A DNA stretch of 64,000 bases, taken from contig OX597816.1 of the NCBI GenBank assembly GCA_951406725.2, forward strand, positions 174,964,001 through 175,028,000, in the 5' to 3' direction. Shown here piece by piece: positions 7,093 to 62,860 of the stretch. The first letter of the stretch is position 1, and every line of letters begins with the position of its first letter. The stretch comes from Octopus vulgaris. Its lineage: Eukaryota. The notes below the pieces were generated by a model, which saw only the letters and a list, made by a program, of their open reading frames with translations, was not told the DNA's origin and searched no databases. A program made the position numbers and the translations under genes.

Positions 7093-7981
7093 CGTGATCT
7101 GATCAATAAGTATCCGGACTGTTGCCGTAGTAACAAAGCTAAAGCACACAAAGTGAAACCACTTGGCACAGATTGACCTTGAACTCTGCTGAGCATGTGC
7201 ACTAAGTTTTAACGTTCTATCTCACTTCTGCCGTTTACAGCAGTGCTTGGAAGGAAGGTATGTAGTGTGTGATTGTCACATCGATTATGACAGAAAGTTG
7301 AACAGAGAATCTGCATCAAATTTTGCCAAGAGTTTGGTGATACCTGCTCAGAGGCCAACACAAAGTTTTCAAAAAGTTTTCATCATTCTCAGCACAATCA
7401 AGGAGATCTTGTGCAACTGAAACCCAAGTGTCTTTTTGGTCAGCTGAAAGCAGTTTTGGCACAAAAAAGGCAGATACGTGTCTCATACCCAAATCTTCAG
7501 TGATAATGGACTGAACTGAACTGTAACTAATCTGCACATCCTCTGATACCTCAGGACAATTCGACGATTTCTCCTCATAGCTGCATGCACATCTGCGATG
7601 TTTTTCTCAGTTCTGCTGGTTGAAGGTCTCCCAAAATGTTCGTCAATATCAACATTTTTTAGGCTATCTTGGAAACGTCTGAACCACTCATACACTTGTG
7701 TGTGAAGCATACACTCCTCTCCATACACTTTCTTAAACTTTGCATCAGTCTCTAAGCAAGTATTGTCATGACGACGTTCTCTGTCATGGTCAATATGACA
7801 ATCACATGCTACACACCTTCCTTCCAAGCACTGCTGTAAACAGTGGAAGTGAGCTAAAATGTTAAAACTTAGTGCTCGTGCACAGCAGAGTTCAAGGTCA
7901 ATCAGTGCCAAGTGGTTTCACTCTGAATGCTTTAGCTTCATTACTATGGCAACAGTCCGGATACTTATTGATCAGACCTCA
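7093..7981. mobile_element. Mariner-derived foldback made of two left ends head-to-head
   Basis: TIR gtctgatcaataagtatccggactgttgc at both ends. A mariner N-terminal HTH remnant (QVYEWFRRF...DEHFGRPSTS...LGMRHVSAFFVPKLL) is on the minus strand. Confidence 0.8.
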
Positions 7982-12760: not shown

Positions 12761-13510
12761 AGACCTTTGGAAATATTCTGTACGTGAGAAGACCAGGCAG
12801 GACAAGTGAGCCCAGCCCACTTATGAATGCCTTTCCTCCCTTGGACACAAAGACCTGTTGAGGCAAGCGAAGTCGATATAGAACCTCATCCGACGACAGG
12901 CACCCATGCCAACCCCCTCTGCTTGCGAAGACATGTTGGGGCAAGCGAAATCGAAATCGAAACCGAATTGAACCAGCCAGGATCCCTGGTCTGGTGGTAC
13001 GTAAAAAGCACTATCTGACTCGTGGCCGATGCCAGCGCCGCTTCCACTGGCTTCCGTGCCGGTGGCACGTAAAATACTCCAATCCGACCGTACAACAGGC
13101 ACCCATGCCAACCCCCTTTGCTTGTGAAGACATGTTGGGGCAAGCGAAATCGAAATCGAATTGAACCAGCCAGAATCCCTGATCTGGTGGTACGTAAAAA
13201 GCACTATCCGACTCGTGACCGATGCCAGCACCGCTTCGACTGGCTTCCGTGCCGGTGGCACATAAAATACACCAATCCGACCATGGCCGTTGCCAGCCTC
13301 GCCTGGCACCTGTGCAGGTGGCACGTAAAAAGCACCCACTACACTCACGGAGTGGTTGGCGTTAGGAAGGGCATCCAGCTGTAGAAACATTGCCAGATTA
13401 GACTGGAGCCTGGTGCAGCCTTCTGGCTTCCCAGATCCCCGGTCGAACCGTCCAACCCATGCTAGCATGGAGAACGGATGTTAAACGATGATGATGATGA
13501 TGATGATGAT
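12761..13510 (+). mobile_element. SINE/non-autonomous element with RTE-like 3' tail ending in (GAT)n, with internal tandem duplication
   Basis: Ends ...gagaacggatgttaaacgatgatgat. A ~200-bp unit is repeated internally. Related copies at 43318, 58708 and 59892. Confidence 0.8.
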
Positions 13511-30625: not shown

Positions 30626-32105
30626 GAAGTAATATATAGAGATCTATAATGCTTGAAATTTTAATGGCTAGTTAGATTCAAACATAGATTCTCTGTCCTG
30701 TTCACCCTCCCCACACACACATACACAGGCAAGTGATGCTTCAGAGCATCCAATAAAATATGCAACGATAATAGGATCTTTTCTGTTTGGCTCACACTTT
30801 TCAATTCCAAGTCGGTGCGTGCCAAATTTGGCACAGACATTAATGATTTCTAGCCAAAGGAAAAATCGGTGGTGGAGGAAAAGAATACTTTTTAAACAAT
30901 GCTCTGGAATGTGCTTCATGCTTTGACCACTAAACCACTGCAAATTAGTACCTCTGGCACCGTGGAATGCTTCCTGCATTTTCTCTCCTCTGCAGCAGCA
31001 ACACGTGTTTACATTGATCCCACTTCCTATTGTCGCTACAAAAAAATGTGAGTAGTACCACATGTTTTGCCCATATTTTCTTGTTGCATTGGTTGAACTG
31101 ACATTGCAATATTTGTATATAGTCACAATGTGCAATCTTTTGGCTATAGAATCACTTCAAAGTTCATGTGCCTAATTTGGTACTATAGGAATAAGTGGAA
31201 AATACGAAATACGTTTATGTGCCGTATAATGTGTGAATGTGCTTTCTTTAACTTTATTATTGTGCATAGCATTTCATATTGCACCAAATTTTTGTTTCAT
31301 GTTAGTTATGAGTTTCTTTTTTCAGCATGTCAACAAACGTCGCCATGACAAACCTGTTGCATCGTTGGTGCAAATGAAAGTGACTTTGAAATGTCAGAGA
31401 GTTCTGGAGATGAACGGATGCCTGAGGATGTTGATGCCTCCAATGATGAAGAGACAAGGTGTCAGAAAAATGGAAGAAAACTAAACCAGTGGAATAAGAG
31501 AGAATAGCTGCATCAACTTCCACAACCAGTGACAATGATAGGGACGATGACCATCCCCTGGCCAGTATTTGTAAAGCTGTACTGCAAGACAATGTGCTTT
31601 TGGCAACCTTACTCAGTGCTGGCTCAGATGACAATGATGATGTGCCATTAGCTTGCCTCTTGGAGAATGGAGATGATCTGAACCCGTATATGGACAAAGA
31701 TCTGATGTCCCTATTGTCCAGTCCAACATGGATGGACATTCCTTTCCAGGCACTTGATACTGAATTCAAAGGCACCCTGGAAAGAGCGCCAGATGACAGG
31801 AGTTTGAAGACTCCATACCAATTCTTCAAAGAATTCATAACAGACAAAATGCTCGATGATGTGATAAAAACAAATATCTACAGCCATCAGAAAACTGGAA
31901 CAATTATGAGAACAACAAAGAAGGAAATGGAGACTTTTACAGCACTTTGCCTCAGGATTGCTTTGTGTAGGCACATTGTCTTCACAGTTATTGGGAAAAT
32001 GGTACCCAATATGAACTAGTCACTGACCACATAGGGCGAGATCATTTCCAGAAGCTTGCATCAATGATTCACTTTGTCGACAACTTGAAAGTAAATGAGC
32101 AGGAC

Positions 32106-35100
32106 GTGGGATGACATCAGCAGCTGGGGTGCTGACCGGAACTTGGGGCTGACTGGAAGACGAAGGGCACAGGAGTGACGCATGTGCAGGTGGAGGAGCA
32201 CTGGGCCTTTCCGATCAGGGTAGCTGACAGGGCTGGACGTGTGAGCGCTTCGACAAAGTAAGGGAAAAGCAGCTGCTATTTTTAGCGTTCAGGTCGGGCC
32301 ATGTGGAAGGGTGCATTACCAACAGAGAGGTCTGCGTCGACGAAGAGAAGGTAGGTGTCTTTACTTCAAATCTCTCGCATACACCACAAGCTATTTCGGC
32401 ACTCCACATAAGACGTCACCACAATGGCAGTTAAAATCAGGATCGCCAGTGACGTTATCAGACCCTTTAATGGTGAGGGTGATGTAGTGACCCGGATGCG
32501 TAAAATCAGGCTTGTGGCGAGATTGCAAGACATTAGCGACATGGCAAGGCTTATGGTACTATATTTGAAAAGGAGCACATTGACTAGAGTACATCTCTAG
32601 ATGGACGAAGAAGGACTGAGTGAGGAGAAGATTGAGCAACGTCTGAGAGAGGCTTACACAGAGTTCACACTTTGTTAAGCTGGGCATGATTAGATGGACA
32701 GGAGAGCAGGTGGATGAATATGCAGTGGAGGTGCGGAGACTAGCCATGTTGGCTGGGTTTACAGGAGAAGGACAGGATAGAGCAGCGCGACTGGCATTTG
32801 TAAGTGGGTTCCCTGATGATGTAGGGATTCGACTGCAATAACTGCCTGGGGACAAAAAGGTGGCGCTGAGTGAACTTGTGACTCAAGCCCACATGTTGAC
32901 GCAAAACACTGGATGGAAGGCAATAGCGATGGTGGTAATGGAGACGCATAAAGACGGATGAGAGCCGGAGAAAGATGCGAAGAAGCCTACTGTGCAGCTG
33001 TCCTCAGGCCGGTGTTTTAGATGTCATTGGTTGCACATGGTGAGGGAGTGTATGTAACCGGGGCCTGTCTGCTATCGATGCAGGCAGACAGGGCACATCG
33101 ACCATGATTGTGACCAGGGAAACGACTGTGGGGAAGTTGCTGTCTCTTGAACTTTCCCCGCAAACAAGTAGAGGTGCTTCTGGAGATGCTACCCTCAATT
33201 GATGTTGAGGCTGAAGAGAAGATGTTCGAGGCCCTGGTGGATACGGGTTGCACGACCACCCTCATGACTTCAAGGGTGATGAAGAAATGGAATGGGGCAA
33301 GTAGCATCCAGGTGGTTGACAGCAGCGAAATCCGATGCAAAGGCAGCAACAATGTTGAGATAGTGGTGCAAGGCACAACGCTAAGGCTGCAAGCAATTGT
33401 GGCTGAACATGTGATAGACGGGGTTGATGTGGTGATGGAGATGGAAGCCATCAACCATCTCGGTGGTGTCAGTATTGTAGGAGATGAGGTCACGTTCAGA
33501 AGCGTGGGGGTGTCATGCGCTGTGAGTTAGGATCACCAGAGAGAGCAGAGCCCTGCAAGGGACTGCGCTGCTTACATGATTGAGGACAAGGATTTTCAGG
33601 TGGTGTTCGATGGTCAGTGGTGGACGATACAATAGTGGCAATGGAAAGACGAGCCCCCGATGCTGAAAAACAGAGTGAGCTGCTACCAGCATAACCTGAA
33701 AGGTCACGCCAGGGTTGAATTTGAAGACGAGGTAGAGAGGTGGATCGAGGAAGGAGTCCTTGTCCCATGGAAGGAGGAGGTAGTGGGTGGAATGCTACCT
33801 CTGATGGTGGTGGTGCAGCCTATGAAGGGAAAAGTCAGACCAGTGCTGGACTTCAGGGAGCTAAACCAGCATATATCGTGCCACACGGGAGGCGAGGCTA
33901 TGGACGTTTGTGGTGAGATTTTACGTGTGTGGAGACAGTCGACCAAGGCAGCGACGATTGTCAACTTGAAATCGGCATACTTGCAGCTCCATGTGAGCGA
34001 CAAACTGTGGCAATATCAGCTGGTGCAGTACAAGGGCCAGATGTACTGTTTAACCAGGCTGGGTTTCAGATTGAATTCTGCTCTGAAGATCATGGCAGCG
34101 GTGCTTAAGTCTGTCCTAGGGAAAGAGGACAAGATAAGAAAGGCCACTAGTTCCTACATAGACAACACTTTGGTGGACGAAACTGTAGTGCCAGCCAACG
34201 AGGTAGTGAGACATCTGGAGAAGTTCGGACTGATTGTGAAGCCACCGGAGTCAATGGAAGAGGGAGCTGCGCTGGGGCTGAAGCTGCAAAGAATAAATCG
34301 GGTGAGTTGGTGTTCCGGAGAGGGAATGAAATCCCAGAGCTAGGTTCCAGCGTCAGCAGCAGAGAGCTGTTCTCAGTGTGTGGGAAGTTGGTCAGTCACA
34401 ACCCGATCGCTGGATGGCTGTGCACAGCATGCAGTTACACCAAGAGACGAGCAGAGGGGGAGAGTTGGGGTGACAAGATAGGAGAAGGGATGGTGGTGAT
34501 GATGCAGGAAATCCTAGAAAAGATGAGAGTGGAGACTTGGTCAGGGGGAGCTGGTATGTGCCCAAGACAGAATGCTGGACCGTTTGGTGTGATGCTAGCA
34601 GTATAGCAATAGGGGTTGTGCTGGAGATCGAAGGCGCTGAGGTGGAGGACGTGGCCTGGCTTCAGAAAGTAGATGACTTTAACCACATCAATGTCGCCAA
34701 ATTAGACGTAGTGCTGAAAGGGGTGAACTTGGCCCTGAAATGGGGGGTGCACACAATTGAAATCCGGACGGATTCAGCCACTATGCTTGGCTGGGTAGGA
34801 TCGGTGATCACCGGTGAGAGGAGAGTTCAGACAAAAGGAGCCATGGAGATGTTGGTGAAGTGCCGTCTAGGAGTTCTAGGAGAATTGATTGCCGAGTTCG
34901 GACTGAAGCTGAACGTGGTTTTCATGCCTTCGGAGAGAAACAGGGCAGACACACTAACCAGGGTGAAGAGGGCGTGGTTGGAGGAGCCGGAGGAGGCACT
35001 TAAAGGGATAGCTGCAGTGTGTCAGTTGGATGACTCCGAACTGAAGAGACTGCACACTATGCATCACTTGGGTGTGGACAGGACCCTTTATCTTGCAAAG

Positions 35101-35945
35101 AAGATTGATGCTGACGTCACTAGGAGAAGCATCTGGAAAGTGCGTCGCTTGTTCAGAGAGTAGCGTATAGGCCAAGCGGTAACGGAATCATAGAGAGGCA
35201 CCATCGGACAGTCAAAGCCATAGTGGAAAGAGGACACATTTTGCTGCTGGAAGCAGTTTTCTGGTACAACATGTCTCCCCGATCTGGACAAGCTGAAGAA
35301 TCTGTGCCACACAGAGCGATATTTAAATACGAATCCAAGTAAAGAGCCGAAGAGAAGGGACCTGTCTATGTGAAAATAGGGGAGGAAGTCTGAGTTAAGC
35401 CACCGAAGGCACGCTGTATATCTCAATGGAGCAGAGGAACGGTGACGGCGGTCAATTCCAGAAACAACGTCTCCTTGGATGGAATTCTGCGACACGTCTT
35501 GGACCTTCGCAGGATTGTTGTTTCATCGGATGATGATTGTGGAGAGGGAGAGAACGAGGTGCCTAGCCTGAGAAGATCTCGACGTGCAAGGCGCCCTCCC
35601 GGTTGGATGGTGGACTGCAATGTGGTGTAGAGAGAATGTGAACTTTATGATCAGGGTTTCGTGAGAGATGACGTCAGTAGCAGGGGAGCTGACTGGAACT
35701 TGGGGTTGACCAGAAGAGGAAGAGTGCTGGAGCGACGTGTGCACAGGCAGGAGAGTATTGGGCCTTTTCGATCGGGGTAACTAACAGGGCTGGACGTGTG
35801 AGCACTTTGACAAGGTAAGGGAAAAGCAGCTGCTATTTTTAGCATTAGGGTCAGGCCACATGGAAGGGTGTGTTATCACCGGAAAGGTCTGCGTTGACGA
35901 AGAGAAGGTAGGTATCTTTACTTCAAATCTCTTGCATACACCACA
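32106..35945 (+). mobile_element. Ty3/Gypsy LTR retrotransposon nested in the piggyBac transposase (gag, protease, RT, RNase H, partial integrase)
   Basis: LTRs at ~32106-32388 (5'-clipped) and 35621-35945 (TGTGGTGTA...TACACCACA). Motifs ALVDTG, RPVLDFRELN, YIDN(D), WCDAS, TDS. Confidence 0.9.
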
Positions 35946-37207
35946 CAGTACAAGGATGATGACAAGTTGTGTCCATGGCTGAAGGACTTTCAAGCCAATC
36001 TCAAAAAGATCCCTCCGAAAAAACACCATTCTGTTAACAAAATAATGGTTGCCTTCAAGGGGAGAGCAGCTCTAAAACAGTACATGCGAGGAAAACTTCA
36101 CTCTTGGGGCTTCAAGCTCTGGGTTAGAGCAGGTGTATCAAGCATCCTGTATAACTTTGAAATCTATGAAGGTTCAGATGACGGAAAGCACAGAGCTCCA
36201 TCTACACAGGGACTTAATGGAAATGTGATCCTCCAAATGGTCAAGGAACTTGAGAGTAGGAAGAATTCTAAGATCTTTGCAGACAATTTTTTCTTTAATC
36301 TCTCTCTTCTCAAAGCTCTGAGAGCCAGGTCCATGTTTTTTGTTGGCACATTTCAGGCAATCAGGCTGAAAGGATGTCAACTGAAATCAGAGAAAGGTCT
36401 GAAGAAACTCAGGCATGGCTCTTCAGACATGAAAGCGGAGTTGGAATCGAACATCATTCAACAACAGATGTGTTGATACTCTGTCCTCATATATTGGAAT
36501 TAAACCAGTAGACTAGGCTGAGAGATACAACAAAAAAAAAATTCAAGTCTCCTTCGTTTGTGTTTTTTTTAATCTTTTTTTTGTTTTATTGATTTATCTT
36601 ATTTATTTATTTATTTATTTTGAGAAACGGATATTTTTGGTTGCTGCCCTGTAAACTACCTCCTTTTCATAATTTTGAACAGTGTATTTTCCTGAACTTT
36701 TTCAACTTAAATAGAAGTATGATCACAGTTAATTCGTTTAAACTTTCGAATATGATAGAGAAACTGAAAACACCTATCTCTCGACCAGCTATTGTACAAG
36801 AATATAATAAATTCATGGGGTGGGGAGTGGATCTCCTTGACAGTATTGTACAAGTACAACATGAGGTCCTGTCGTTGGTATATGTGCATCTTTTACCACA
36901 CATTGACCTTGACTGTTGTCAACAGCTGGTGTTGGATTTACAACCAATGAAACTCAGTGTTTTCCAAGGGATGATTGCTGAAGCACTGCTATCCATCAAA
37001 AGTCAGACACCCTTAATTCATGCACTGTGACACCACTCCTGGCAAAAATCATCTGTAGTAAAGCCCCGTGTTTTCAAGTAACATCAGCAAATCAACTCAG
37101 TTTGACTAACATTGTATTAAATAGTTTGTAAATAACAGTTTTGTTGTTTAATTGTGCTAGATGAAATTGGAACTCTTTGAAATGTTTACTGAGATGCAAA
37201 GACCTAT

Positions 37208-37313: not shown

Positions 37314-37450
37314 ATCATATTTCACAACCTACTAATGATTTTGAAGGGAATCAACTTTTTGTTTTTTTAATCATTTAAATATCAAATTTACACTGAAAAT
37401 AATTTTTGTGTTACTGGATGTATGAACAGGTTCTAGAGGGTTAAATTTTG

Positions 37451-38029
37451 GGATCTTTACCGTTTGACGTACAGATTTAAAAAATAATTTTTTGTAACTA
37501 AACACTTTCAAACTTCGGACGCTGGTAGAATGTGTCATATAAAACATGTTTTACTCTTGGCATTTTTGAGAAAAACTTATATTTACAAAGTAATTTCACA
37601 TTAAAGTAGGCCTATTTCGGTAATTTCAACCAATCAATGACGTGTATTCAGCTGAATAAAATTACTGCCGTTGTTTGTCAACAAGAACTTCTGGCGGTGT
37701 ATTTTTTGTTTGTTACTGTTATTTATGACAACCCTAACCCTAACCCCTTAAAGCTAAAACCGGTACAAACGCACGAACGATGTCATAAATAACAGCGACA
37801 AATGAAATATACACCGCCGATACTTGTTGTTAACAAACAACGGCAGTAATTTTATTCAGCTGAATACACGTCATTGATTGGTTGAAATTACCGAAATAGA
37901 CCTACTAAAGTAGTGAAATTACTTCGCAAAAATATAAGTTATTCTCAAATTCTACCAGTGTCCGAAATTTGAAAGTGTTTAGTTACAAAAAATTATTTTT
38001 TAAATCTGTACGTCAAACGGTAAAGATCC
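37451..38029. mobile_element. Long-TIR foldback MITE (GGATCTTT termini) with central (CCCTAA)n
   Basis: ggatctttaccgtttgacgtacag...ctgtacgtcaaacggtaaagatcc. TSD AAATTTTG. Confidence 0.88.
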
Positions 38030-38760
38030 AAATTTTGTTCAACTAATTTAAAATTTGGTGTATTGATGTAGTTTCAGATGGTAATTATGGAAATGAAATT
38101 CAGTTTTGCCATTGCAAATTTTGGGTAATTTTAACCAATGAAAAGCCAGACATATTGATGCCAGTTTCCATAGTAACAAACCAAGTCTCCTTCGTTTGTG
38201 TTTTTTTTAATCTTTTTTTTGTTTTATTGATTTATCTTATTTATTTATTTATTTATTTTGAGAAACGGATATTTTTGGTTGCTGCCCTGTAAACTACCTC
38301 CTTTTCATAATTTTGAACAGTGTATTTTCCTGAACTTTTTCAACTTAAATAGAAGTACGATCACAGTTAATTCGTTTAAACTTTCGAATATGATAGAGAA
38401 ACTGAAAACCGAGGAGAATAGTGAACTAGAACGTTGAGTTCCTTAACTCGAAAGATGGTACCACACTCAATAATACATTCGCCTCTGTAAAACGAAGGAA
38501 TATCAACGAGCTGTGGAACCCACAGTTCTATAGTTGACTCGTATTTGGAGATACGACAATAGTCATTAGTTTGATAAACTTCTAGACTCTATTGTAAACT
38601 TTCGTTTATGATTCGCTACAAAAAATGTATTCATTGAGGATTTTTCAGTTTTTATATTGTTTACATGTCTGGTCCAACATTTCACTTGACTAATTATTAA
38701 AACTTATCAAAACTTCCATCATTGAAAGGTATGTCATTGTATTGTCATTACCGACAAAGT

Positions 38761-43317: not shown

Positions 43318-43510
43318 ATCATCATCATTATCATCGTTTAACGTCCGTTCTCCATGCTAGCATGGGTTGGACGGTTCAACAGGGGATCTGGGAAGCCAGA
43401 AGGCTGCACCAGGCTCCACTCTTATCTGGCAATGTTTCTACAGCTGGATGCCCTTCCTAACGCCAACCACTCCGTGAGTGTAGTGGGTGCTTTTTACGTG
43501 CCACCTGCAC
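43318..43510 (-). mobile_element. 3' fragment of the (GAT)n-tailed SINE
   Basis: catcatcgtttaacgtccgttctccatgctagc... Confidence 0.8.
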
Positions 43511-44459
43511 AGTCATTATTCACATTATTCACATCCACTGTAAAATTCCTGAAGAACAATATTTCTTGGATAGACAAGATCACACCTTGGCTTTCTGAAT
43601 TTTCAGTTTGAAATTTCTAGTTATTTCTGGTCTTATTAAGTTGATATGATCCAGCAGTACTTGGACATTTTCCTCTTAGGGCTAGAGTATGAAGGTGTCA
43701 TCAACATATTAGTTCGCAGCAGCAACTGTTTTTTGAAACCTCATATTGTCGTTAATTGCTTGAAATTTGGAGTAGATGAACAGCTGACAACTGATGCAGG
43801 GTCGTTCTTTATGTTACATGTCTTGTTTTCCATTTGTTTCTCTCATTGTTTGCATACTCAACATTATTTTCGTATTTCATGTTGTTTACGTTTTGTGATA
43901 TCCTCTACCCATATATGCATATATATCTATACATATAAATTTGGCATGGGCGATTCTATCTTGTCTTGGGATTCACAGTCAAACAGCTGGGTGGAATTGC
44001 GTGAAAAATTACACAGATGTGTAGAATGATCCAGTGGTGTTGCTGGACTTTGTATTTTTTCAAAGCTCCCATGGTTACTGAGATAATCTACTATAATGAT
44101 ACTCTTGTGTTTATGAATGAGAAAGGAAGGGGTGACAGATGAATGAGGAAGGAAGAAAGAGGTGAGCGTCAGTGGATTTGGTTGACGGAAACTGAAAGAA
44201 GTCTGCCCTGTGTGTGTGTGTGTGTGTGTATTTGTGTCTGTGTTTATTTTCCCCCACCATCGCTTAGAAACTGATGCTGGTGTGTTTACATCCCCGTAAC
44301 TTAGTGGTTCAGCAGAAGACATCGATAGAATAAGCACCAGGCTTACAAAGAATAAGTCCAGGGGTTGATTTTATCAACTGAAAGGCAGTACTCCAGCATG
44401 GCCACACTAAAATGACTGAAAAAAGTAACAGAGCAAAAGAGAAATATATATATATATAT

Positions 44460-54781: not shown

Positions 54782-56089
54782 GGACGAATGCACAATGACC
54801 AATAAGGGTGCCCTTGAGGCACTGGACCGGTCACTGAAAGGTATCAGGGATTCTACAGCTTCTGTGGGTGATGTCGTGTAACTCTATTGCTTTCAGGAGA
54901 TTTCCGGCAAACCCTTCCTGTCATCCTTAAAGGGAGCTGGGCTGATGAAGTGCGCGCATGCCTTAAGTCATCCATGTTGTGGCTCCAGGTTAAGACCTTA
55001 AGCCTAAGCACAAACATGCGTGCGTACTTACTTGGTGATAACACGTCTGCAGCATTTGCTGAAGACATTTTAACCCTTGGAGAAGGCAAGGTCCCTAGGA
55101 ATGATAGGGGCGACATATCCATCTCTGAAGTGTGCAACACCGTGGACAACCCTTCCGATCTTTTGGAAACAGTGTTCCCCAATCTGGAAAGTAATTATGC
55201 AGACATCAATTGGCTCATTGAAAGAACCATCTTGGCCCCCCCCCCCCAAAAAAAACGTAGCTGTCGGTGCTACCAACGACCAGCTCACAAGCCGAATTAC
55301 GGGTGGGGAGCGCATCAACAAATCGATTAACTGGACCTCTGACCCCCAAGACATTGTCATTTACCCTATCGAGTTTCTCAACTCATTGGAGCCAGCAGGG
55401 CTTCCACCTCACATTCTTAGGCTAAGGGTTGGATACCCAATTATGCTAATCAGAAACTTGCTTCCACGTAAATAGAGCAACGGGACCCGCTTAGTAATCA
55501 AGTCCCTGACGCCTGACTTGATTGAGGCCACCATTGTTACAGGGTGCGGGAGGGGTGAAAATGTTTTCATTTCAAGGATGCAGCTTTATCCCTCGCAGTC
55601 AGACATGCCGTTTAACTTCCACAGATCGCAGTTCCCGGTGAGACCATACTTCGCCATGTCCCAAGGCCAAACGCTATCGGTGGCAGGCATCCATTTGGGG
55701 TTTTCCATTCAATCGGGATAAAAAATTGATGAGCCGATTCCTTATAGAATTTCCTACAAAAATTGGCTAAACCTCATTTTCAACCATAACTTTTACCAAC
55801 TTTGACATATTTTGCTCAAACTTGATGCCAGCATTACTTAGGACTCATGGGATCTTTGAATGCTTTAAGTTCTCAAAAAAAAATCGATGAGTGGAAATAA
55901 TCGATAAACCGATTCCTTATGGGATTTCCCAGTCAAATTGCCTGCAACCCATTTTCAGCCAAACGTTTACCAATTTCAGCGGATTTCGCTCAAATTTGAT
56001 GTCGGTGTCACTTATTTTGGTTTGAAATAAAGCGCTTGATCACTTAAATATCCTAACTTAATCCTGGGCAACGCCGGGCTATACTGCTA

Positions 56090-57829: not shown

Positions 57830-58154
57830 ACAGAGAGAGAGAGAGAGAGCAATAAGAAAATAGAGGGGATCAATAGGTGGTATTCATCAACTTTTAGACA
57901 TTGTATTATGTCAATTTATTTACTAAAATGTATATATATATATATATAAAACTGTCCAACAAACGGGACTCCAGTTGCATTGCGCGCATTTTTTTTTCAC
58001 ATTCGCTTCCCACACATTGTTTTACACCCATTCCAGTATTTTTTTTCTATTTTCATTTCCGGGTCAAGATGTAAACATTAACCGCGTAGAACTCTACCTC
58101 CGGTATTCGAATACTATTTCTTCCAGCTGGTTTCCGCATTTATGTGCTTACTCT

Positions 58155-58227
<73 letters not shown>

Positions 58228-60791
58228 GGTACTTGTCAATTGTCGTGGTCCCGGTTTTGCACACGCGAATTCGCGCGCGCCAGACGTAGGTACTCGATAC
58301 TCGAGATCCTACGAGGTGACTTGCGCATGCGCAGTGCAGAATTCGCGCGTGCGCGTTAGCCCCCCCCCCAAAAAAAAGGTGTTGGATTTCACTAAAAATA
58401 TATGTGTGTGTGTGTATATATAACATTTTCAATTTTACACAAAAAAATTACATAGTCGCTTTCCTCGCGGATTTACAGAGAAATGAATTAATTACTATTT
58501 TACAGAATAAAATTAATGAATTAATTATATAAATTAAATAATTCTTGAAAATTAATTAATATTAATAATATTTTTTGAACAAAGTAAATAATTTATAAAA
58601 CTTGGTTAATAATTTTTTTTACACAAACGCGAACGTATATAATTTGTGAAACTTTTTTTTTTTACAGACGTATATAATTTGGTAAACTTAATGAATTAAT
58701 TTCTTCTCATCATCATCATCGTTTAACGTCCGTTCTCCATGCCAGCATGGGTTGGACGGTTCGACCGGGGATCTGGGAAGCCAGAAGGCTGCACCAGACT
58801 CCAGTCTTATCTGGCAATGTTTCTACAGCTGGATGCCCTTCCTAACGCCAACCACTCCGAGAGTGTAGTGGGTGCTTTTTACATGCCACCCGCACAGGTG
58901 CCAGGCGAGGCTGGCAACGGCCACGGTCGGATTGGTGCCAGTCGAGGCGGCTCTGGCATCGGCCACGATTCGGATAGTGCTTTTTACGTACCACCAGTCC
59001 AGGGGTCCTGGCATTTGCCGGGTGCCACACTTGCCCCAACATGTCTTCGCAAGCAAAGGGGTTGGCATGGGTGCCTGTCGTGGGATGAGGTTCGATATCA
59101 ACTTCGCTTGCCTCAACAGGTCTTTGTGTATAAATGTATAAATTTTTCGCACTAAATTCTTTCCGTAGAATTTATAAAAAAACGCGCAAAATTATTCCGT
59201 AGACTTTATCAAATTAAAAAACGCAAAATTAATATATTTTTTGAAATTGCAAATTATTTAGAATATAAAACAAATTAAGTTAAATTTTAAAAATAAATGT
59301 CATATACTTATACTCTGTAAGGTGCTGTGTTCACACTTCAATTTACTATTTTCTAGAAATGTTGCTTTTCTAATTGAAACAATTTTTCTCAATCTCCATT
59401 TAAAAGTCCATAATGCCTCTTGAGCCATATCAAAATGAACAACTTTGAATTACCCGGTGGTGGTGGTGTGAGGTTCTAATTTTTTTTCTGATCTCTCTTT
59501 GCCCCCCCTAGATGGAGGTGTGGTGGGGAGACACAAAAAAAAATTAGAACCTCACACCACCACCACCGGGTAATTCAAAGTTGTTCATTTTGATATGGCT
59601 CAAGAGGCATTATGGACTTTTAAATGGAGATTGAGAAAATTGTTTCAATTAGAAAAGCAACATTTCTAGAAAATAGTAAATTGAAGTGTGAACACAGCAC
59701 CTTACAGAGTATAAGTATATGACATTTATTTTTAAAATTTAACTTAATTTGTTTTATATTCTAAATAATTTGCAATTTCAAAAATATATTAATTTTGCGT
59801 TTTTTAATTTGATAAAGTCTACGGAATAATTTTGCGCGTTTTTTTATAAATTCTACGGAAAGAATTTAGTGCGAAAAATTTATACATTTATACACAAAGA
59901 CCTGTTGAGGCAAGCGAAGTTGATATCGAACCTCATCCCACGACAGGCACCCATGCCAACCCCTTTGCTTGCGAAGACATGTTGGGGCAAGTGTGGCACC
60001 CGGCAAATGCCAGGACCCCTGGACTGGTGGTACGTAAAAAGCACTATCCGAATCGTGGCCGATGCCAGAGCCGCCTGACTGGCACCAATCCGACCGTGGC
60101 CGTTGCCAGCCTCGCCTGGCACCTGTGCGGGTGGCATGTAAAAAGCACCCACTACACTCTCGGAGTGGTTGGCGTTAGGAAGGGCATCCAGCTGTAGAAA
60201 CATTGCCAGATAAGACTGGAGTCTGGTGCAGCCTTCTGGCTTCCCAGATCCCCGGTCGAACCGCCCAACCCATGCTGGCATGGAGAACGGACGTTAAACG
60301 ATGATGATGATGAGAAGAAATTAATTCATTAAGTTTACCAAATTATATACGTCTGTAAAAAAAAAAAAGTTTCTCAAATTATATACGTTCGCGTTTGTGT
60401 AAAAAAAATTATTAACCAAGTTTTATAAATTATTTACTTTGTTCAAAAAATATTATTAATATTAATTAATTTTCAAGAATTATTTAATTTATATAATTAA
60501 TTCATTAATTTTATTCTGTAAAATAGTAATTAATTCATTTCTCTGTAAATCCGCGAGGAAAGCGACTATGTAATTTTTTTGTGTAAAATTGAAAATGTTA
60601 TATATACACACACACACATATATTTTTAGTGAAATCCAACACCTTTTTTGGGGGGGGGGCTAACGCGCACGCGCGAATTCTGCACTGCGCATGCGCAAGT
60701 CACCTCGTAGGATCTCGAGTATCGAGTACCTACGTCTGGCGCGCGCGAATTCGCGTGTGCAAAACCGGGACCACGACAATTGACAAGTACC
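58228..60791. mobile_element. Giant foldback (Mutator/FB-like) non-autonomous element, ~1.26-kb arms and ~47-bp spacer
   Basis: GGTACTTGTC...GACAAGTACC termini. 9-bp TSD CACATATAC (58219-58227 / 60792-60800). Arms nearly identical. Confidence 0.92.
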
Positions 60792-60829
60792 CACATATAC
60801 ATAATATATATATATATATGCAATTAAGT

Positions 60830-61010
60830 GCGCTTAGCTCTATGGACGACGCGTCAGACTCTTAATCTCTTTAACACAATAACCTCGGAGGGTGGCGTAC
60901 CTCTGTCGTAGAAATACGCCTTCCACTTCATCCGCCTTATGAAGTCTATCAGTTTCTCAAGTAGAATTTTCGTATAAACCTCGTTAGACGGTGTTGGAAT
61001 ATGCAGAAGA
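60830..61010 (-). mobile_element. Penelope-like ORF N-terminal fragment
   Basis: Minus strand encodes IPTPSNEVYTKILLEKLIDFIRRMKWKAYF, resembling the conserved FIRRMRWKA region of PLE ORFs. Confidence 0.6.
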
Positions 61011-61055
<45 letters not shown>

Positions 61056-62138: not shown

Positions 62139-62860
62139 GGATCTTTTCCTTTTGAACGGCACTTTGTAACATAATTTCTAGGCAACTAAATAGTTTTAAA
62201 CTTCGTATACTGGTAGAATGTGTTTATAAAACATCTTTTTCTCTTGGCTTTATTGAGAAAATTCTATAGTTTGTAAGATATTTCGTCTGAAATTTCTTGC
62301 ATTTCGGCAATTTTAACCAATCAATTACCTCCATTGACGTTAATAACATTCTGTGCATAATGAATATGTCCCTCCTTTAAGAAACAGATTGGGTTTATAT
62401 ACATTTGTGAAGAAAAAAGATACCCTTTTCCCCACCCCTAACCCTAACCCTAACTAACCCTAAATCTAAAATAGATTGAAATGCAATAGATCGATACTAG
62501 GATTATAATTTCATACGACACTGGTACGGAAAATAGATCGATACTAGGATTATAATTTCATACAACACTGGTACTGAAAATAGATCGATACTAGGATTAT
62601 AATTTCATATGACACTGGTACGGAAAATAGATCGATACTAGGATTATAATTTCATATGACACTGGTACGGAAAATAGATCGATACTAGGATTATAATTTC
62701 ATACGACACTGGTATGGAAAATGGGATTGTTTTCTAGCGGTGTCAAATGAAAATGTCACCCATAATTATGGCCCTAGTATCGATCTATTGCATTTCAATC
62801 TATTTTCGATTTAGGGTTACCTAGAAATGTTACAAAGTGCCGTTCAAAAGGAAAAGATCC
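62139..62860. mobile_element. GGATCTTT-terminated MITE with (CCCTAA)n and a 47-bp x5 tandem array (62486-62720)
   Basis: TIRs ggatcttttccttttgaacggcactttgtaac / gttacaaagtgccgttcaaaaggaaaagatcc. TSD (t/c)AGTAATTT. Confidence 0.85.

Follow-up and report, generated by a model that had tools for sequence, protein, structure and literature searches.

The 64-kb stretch of octopus DNA analysed here (the window) raises the question of how one and the same retroposon fragment came to lie, mirrored, at the same place in both arms of a palindromic element. Repeat search and global alignment of the arms delimited an element of 2564 bp (58228-60791), with a left arm of 1260 bp and a right arm of 1256 bp that make up 98% of its length. 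Of the 1255 aligned pairs, 2 are substitutions (at 58647/60374 and 58756/60264), an identity by substitution of 99.84%; the 5 indel events occupy 6 columns, four of these events lying in homopolymer runs and one being a G at 58944/60076. The near-perfect arms described in an earlier note on this DNA are confirmed in this way; its spacer of about 47 bp is corrected to 48 bp, with the right arm starting at 59536. The element begins with GGTAC and ends with GTACC, and its features are the following.

58219..58227, + strand: left copy of the target site duplication (TSD), CACATATAC, which ends a (TA)35 tract (alignment, repeat search)
58228..59487, + strand: left arm, a long terminal inverted repeat (TIR) of 1260 bp beginning with GGTAC (repeat search, alignment)
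58259..58352, no strand: CpG-rich subterminal inner inverted repeat with a mirror counterpart in the right arm (folding, CpG o/e)
58708..59129, - strand: retroposon 3' fragment of the left arm, 5'-truncated, with a (GAT)n tail and without TSD (alignment)
59161..59231, no strand: internal tandem repeat, 34 bp x2, with its mirror at 59790-59860 (repeat search)
59488..59535, no strand: non-palindromic spacer of 48 bp, which appears common to many family copies in the public runs X1 and X2 (alignment, public contigs, folding)
59536..60791, - strand: right arm, a long TIR of 1256 bp with the final bases GTACC (alignment, public contigs)
59892..60312, + strand: mirror copy of the retroposon fragment in the right arm (alignment)
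60792..60800, + strand: right copy of the TSD, CACATATAC, with the junction in an X1 contig of single-copy depth (alignment, public contigs)

The 9-bp direct repeat CACATATAC abuts both ends of the element, as had been claimed. In the 64 kb the same word occurs 8 times when both strands are counted, and of 1816 other positions close to (TA)n tracts 1 carries it; the pair is therefore a credible TSD, with a chance probability of about 1e-3 or less. Beyond it, the flanks are not mirrored. The unique insertion flanks at 57950-58156 and 60822-61012 are CpG-rich (o/e 1.24 and 1.30, against 0.51) and may represent a promoter or CpG island; X2 lacked the right one (60822-61012) at 90% likeness. CpG is also enriched in the subterminal repeat at 58259-58352 (o/e 1.71, compared with 0.51 for the window), which we infer to be a candidate transposase-binding region; folding of 58228-58372 gave z -2.6, with 3 of 200 shuffles as good.

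The reported absence of coding capacity was borne out, since none of the nine reading frames tested in the element matched a Pfam family (0 families), and a hidden coding capacity is rejected on the same count. An RNA gene is rejected as well: 0 tRNAs were found in the element, and the 14 Rfam matches, on the hairpin centre or the TA tract, all fall far below the gathering score. Folding gave a strong hairpin at the centre of the palindrome (z -13.6, equalled by 0 of 200 shuffles). A degenerate palindrome inside the 48-bp spacer is unsupported, 195 of 200 shuffles folding equally well. This gene-less palindrome of 2.56 kb is likely a non-autonomous cut-and-paste transposon moved in trans.

The retroposon pieces of the two arms (58708-59129 and 59892-60312) differ from each other by 1 substitution in 421, while each differs from a copy elsewhere in the window (12846-13500) at 39-40 of 420-421 positions and from another (43322-43512) at 9-10 of 190. 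Both pieces have identical ends and the same 26-column internal deletion, and both arms share 5 of 190 letters against both other window copies. At eight sites, chosen because the window letter holds a minority of the X1 depth (<=5-42%), the left arm carries the minority letter of the right arm in 8 of 8 cases. Two independent retroposon insertions are rejected by the same ends, the same deletion and the same rare letters. Because these three kinds of evidence agree between the arms, the sequences indicate one retroposon insertion that was then copied to the other arm, as the earlier note had proposed.

The cargo is the 3' end of an abundant retroposon: it carries a (GAT)4 3' tail and its 5' end falls within the longer window copy, so that both a 3' simple-repeat tail and 5' truncation are present. 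The claim that the same truncated SINE lies in both arms stands for the fragment and its place, and falls for the name SINE. The piece gave no tRNA hit and no Rfam match (being 5'-truncated, it could have lost a tRNA-related head), no direct repeat forming a TSD of its own was found at its junctions, and the longer copy in the window, which also gave no tRNA hit (12780-13510), continues on the 5' side. For these reasons the cargo may be a truncated LINE 3' end, and the SINE label is unproven. The longer copy has an internal duplication of about 190 bp, and at its 5' end the sequence resembles the final codons of an ORF, a hint of a LINE 3' UTR. Capture of the cargo as repair filler is possible.

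The window holds other elements. A MITE-like palindromic element of 302 bp (37605-37906) has 126-bp arms (90%) and a 50-bp spacer with CCCTAA repeats; TTAA stands on its left flank only, and its ends are presumably Kolobok-like. At 62139-62860, nested inverted repeats (62139-62191/62809-62860 and 62455-62510/62764-62819) enclose a tandem array of 47 bp x5 (62485-62722), and this region is related to sequences at 37448-37663 and 37928-38034. A deleted mariner-like element (7098-7976) with 197-bp inverted arms (88%) gave a Mos1-type HTH_48 match with E 8.7e-05, below the curated cut-off. PiggyBac-like transposase fragments (DDE_Tnp_1_7) lie at 31498-36476 on either side of an LTR-retrotransposon-like insert with 279-bp direct repeats (32110-32388 and 35667-35945), and a frameshifted PIF1 helicase fragment at 54872-55475 probably derives from a Helitron.

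Part of the right arm and its flank is contained in 19 of the 24 public runs listed, under four organism labels. Four runs were compared over 59488-61012, two as contigs (X1 and X2) and two as raw reads (X20 and X21); in the latter only 14 and 30 reads matched, all on the retroposon. X1 may come from the same source sample as the window, and a 275-bp contig of this run (depth 32.6) passes through 24 bases at the right end of the element, the TSD and the flank, with 0 differences. In X1, summed depth, which is not copy number, was 12,472 for the spacer bin and had a median of 50,491 over the inner-arm bins, compared with 32.6 in the flank; the spacer and inner-arm values for X2 were 3,188 and 14,423. 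These depths point to a multicopy family that shares the 48-bp spacer under the two organism labels of X1 and X2. Its copies are known from contig pieces, and no contig listed spans 59488-61012. In X2, the depth of the outer arm is 3.9-fold that of the inner arm, which suggests relatives with different interiors.

Word shares were 0.76 in X1 and 0.26-0.44 in the other 18 runs; they hint that this exact form is low-copy, but contigs drop words and the hint was given no weight. CpG decay could account for the depth that remains of the window's rare letter at 59939, and therefore no count of cargo-bearing copies is given. A joint in X2 from 59838 to 60379 (depth 1948) corresponds to an arm without cargo. 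It skips 540 bp, 119 more than the cargo, and may be a deletion derivative and not a cargo-free ancestor; it was not seen among the joints listed for X1. Among the joints listed, 15 of 123, there was neither an exact skip of the cargo nor a strand change at the spacer. X2 also contains a shorter arm variant (60408 to 60715, depth 1645), in which 306 bp are replaced by 18 letters, and a CC-to-TT change at 60416-60417 reaches 67% in X2 and 1% in X1; together they represent subfamily turnover between the two organisms, A and B. A metagenome scan with the 20-base terminus gave 0 matches, and one with the 16-base terminus at least 119 loci, none with an inverted partner among the matches listed; the best extension among these matches was 27 bp (E 0.009), which we read as chance.

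If the arms were continually copied onto each other, differences between them should not persist in the family. At 59635 in X2 (organism B), the left-arm state of the 59383/59639 indel accounts for 4165.5 of a depth of 8218, a 51:49 split, and the spacer depth at 59502 is 4198, matching one arm of each state per copy. This split was measured in X2 alone, and the difference counts are partial. It could also arise from two symmetric subfamilies, or from recurrent slippage in the run of 4-5 bases. At the 59779 indel, the left-arm state makes up 7983 of 19700 in X2 (41%) and 25175 of 101393 in X1 (25%), and the X1 share, being 25% and not 50%, counts against one arm of each state per copy. At 60643, X1 holds the right-arm form at depth 37, the left-arm form at 49 and a third form at 20, with the adjacent repeat skipped and the depth low. 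The inner asymmetries, at 59383/59639 and 59237/59784, sit 104 and about 250 bp from the spacer. Considering that the inner indel states of both arms appear family-wide, these data argue against both an assembly artefact and routine homogenisation, and the arms appear not to be routinely homogenised. The ongoing homogenisation, or snap-back intermediate, that had been suggested is not supported, since the inner-arm asymmetries of this copy appear family-wide in another organism.

We therefore favour, with a probability of roughly 0.7, that the retroposon inserted in one arm and was copied once to the partner by repair. The palindrome and its spacer would pre-date the retroposon, whose 3' end would then have entered one arm. 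The cargo-free arm would have been broken, by hairpin or cruciform cleavage or at an excision gap, and the break repaired by strand invasion, with the partner arm of the same copy or of the sister copy as template. The inner asymmetries of the family survive, which would place the inner end of the copied tract between 59784 and 59892. Finally, the two-cargo copy would have arrived by ordinary transposition, or been converted in place. Fold-back priming from a break outside 59784 is possible and would be equivalent to this explanation.

The same product as by conversion could be reached through two reciprocal recombinations, in which an arm crossover flips the interior and an exchange in the inner arm with an unflipped sister or other copy then joins two cargo-bearing halves. 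This requires long TIRs only, it leaves part of the inner arm untouched, as observed, and Galileo copies are known, from the available literature, to recombine and form chimeras. We consider it unlikely, as two events would have to fall in short intervals, 480 bp outside and 358 bp inside the cargo.

A bolder reading, and a slightly more doubtful one, is that of an actively spreading octopus foldback Merlin family whose 2.56-kb master carries the retroposon 3' end in both arms, and whose transcripts would form a near-perfect hairpin RNA of 1.26 kb against the abundant retroposon. If true, this RNA would be a mobile source of silencing or a substrate for A-to-I editing, and the fixed left/right markers would let conversion tracts be mapped copy by copy. 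There are two weak pointers in this direction, namely the mean of 2.64 kb (28,998 bp / 11) of the 11 recently active O. vulgaris Merlin insertions in the available survey, and the CpG-rich flanks (o/e 1.2-1.3 vs 0.51).

Snap-back replication, in which a single half would serve to build every new copy through hairpin priming close to the centre and the arms would be re-homogenised in every cycle, is improbable. The strong central hairpin and the 99.84% likeness of the arms speak for it. Nevertheless, the asymmetries on either side of the spacer appear family-wide and are shared with organism B, and no substitution at >=5% was found among the differences listed for the non-retroposon arm in X1, so that the youth of the family may explain the identity of the arms. 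A one-off, local arm-to-arm repair fits better. An assembly or polishing artefact, from a chimeric fold-back read or a mis-polished arm, is very improbable: four of the five indels are in homopolymers and, of the two junctions, the right one was compared with contigs, but the flanks are unmirrored and show the 9-bp repeat in direct orientation, X1 contigs contain the right junction with 0 differences, and the indel states of both arms occur in short-read contigs at 59635, 59779 and 60643.

The superfamily is independent of the history of single insertion and arm-to-arm repair. An assignment to Mutator/Foldback had been proposed and is possible given the 9-bp TSD and long TIRs, whereas the terminus is a better fit to Merlin. 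Elements of that superfamily are characterised by TSDs of 8 or 9 bp and by TIRs that open with GG, originally given as 24-462 bp in the available descriptions; here the TIRs start with GGTAC and the TSD is 9 bp, and the 1.26-kb TIR exceeds this range and is near the 1000 bp of two zebrafish families. In the available text of PMC8101967 these are Merlin-1_DR and Merlin-N5_DR, whose TIRs measure about 1000 bp and whose two ends each carry tandem arrays. The first 8 bases of the terminus match a Euglena Merlin, and the first 6 match the record NW_003154740.1. The Merlin end motif GGNRM did not turn up in a relevant paper and was given no weight in this assignment. Merlin proteins are present in octopus, and for O. 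vulgaris the accessible part of the repeat survey lists 18 Merlin and 55 Mutator families; it also gives, as a weak pointer, a mean of 0.88 kb for 115 Mutator insertions vs 2.64 kb for the 11 recently active Merlin ones. Judged from termini, TSD and kb-long arms, which fit Merlin somewhat better than Mutator, we lean slightly towards Merlin.

The same history in a Mutator/Foldback derivative (MULE or Rehavkus-like) is a less probable, still plausible, assignment. The 8-11-bp TSDs and long TIRs that typify MULEs are found here too, the Rehavkus TSD is 9 bp (PMC6446971, available text), acquired DNA is reported to enter extended TIRs of MULEs in the accessible part of PMC3310237, and O. vulgaris has more Mutator than Merlin families (55 against 18). 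On the other side, the terminus matches Merlin ends at 6-8 bases, and the MULE TIRs analysed in the available text of PMC6446971 span 14-500 bp, whereas kb-long Merlin TIRs exist. Membership is proven for neither.

Set beside known systems, the element resembles Merlin (IS1016-like) families such as zebrafish Merlin-1_DR and Merlin-N5_DR in its GG ends, 9-bp TSD, TIRs of about 1 kb with tandem repeats, the existence of non-autonomous members and the presence in octopus (PMC8101967, as far as its available text goes). Unlike those elements, it has no transposase, and its arms are almost the whole of it. The literature searched yielded no Merlin described with a mirrored retroposon cargo. With Mutator/Foldback elements, including Rehavkus and Pack-MULEs, it shares the 9-bp TSD, the long TIRs and captured DNA that joins extended TIRs (PMC6446971, PMC3310237, both in part); in contrast to them, it shows no link to a MULE transposase and its terminus is closer to Merlin ends. 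Conversion between closely spaced inverted arms, as in chromosomal palindromes (PMC1803023, available text, and the human Y palindromes cited there), corresponds to the copying step inferred here; those palindromes are immobile, whereas the homogenisation of the octopus element looks episodic and not continuous. In willow palindromes, LTR insertions mostly have no counterpart in the opposite arm in the available text of PMC7023750, and therefore mirroring is not automatic.

No description of this family was found in the literature, although the O. vulgaris consensus library may hold it, and neither the terminus nor the retroposon motif was found in the supplement files searched of PMC9115989. 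The family is probably an undescribed one of foldback type. The mechanism, which had been put forward as undescribed, has a published precedent in Galileo, with foreign TE fragments in both TIRs and repair between TIRs proposed. In the available text on D. willistoni, both TIRs of TSD-flanked copies contain fragments of P, Mar and 1360, two such copies being independent insertions, and insertion in one TIR with transfer to the other is given as a pattern of TIR extension (PMC4168063); for D. mojavensis, it was proposed that one TIR is repaired with the other as template (PMC3573991, available text). The octopus element is like the long-TIR Galileo copies 112, 145 and 147 (PMC4168063, in part) in being gene-less with two kb-long TIRs, the Galileo arms being up to 99.9% alike, and in having AT-rich tracts, tandem repeats, TSDs and pieces of other TEs in each of its TIRs. 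It differs, within what these sources describe, in its spacer of only 48 bp, in its cargo, which is one retroposon 3' end of 421 bp as opposed to DNA-transposon fragments (P, Mar, 1360) of 36-202 bp, and in its TSD, the 9-bp CACATATAC departing from the 7-bp (rarely 8-bp) TSD with GTANTAC consensus of Galileo, a member of the P superfamily.

No new transposition mechanism is shown by this locus, and the mirroring of foreign DNA in both TIRs is an already known process. The element is a clean example of it outside Drosophila and probably outside the P superfamily. Given its family-wide left/right markers, a single long-read genome would be enough to map the arm-to-arm repair, which has been proposed but little tested. 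The octopus element works like Galileo and is not a member of Galileo.
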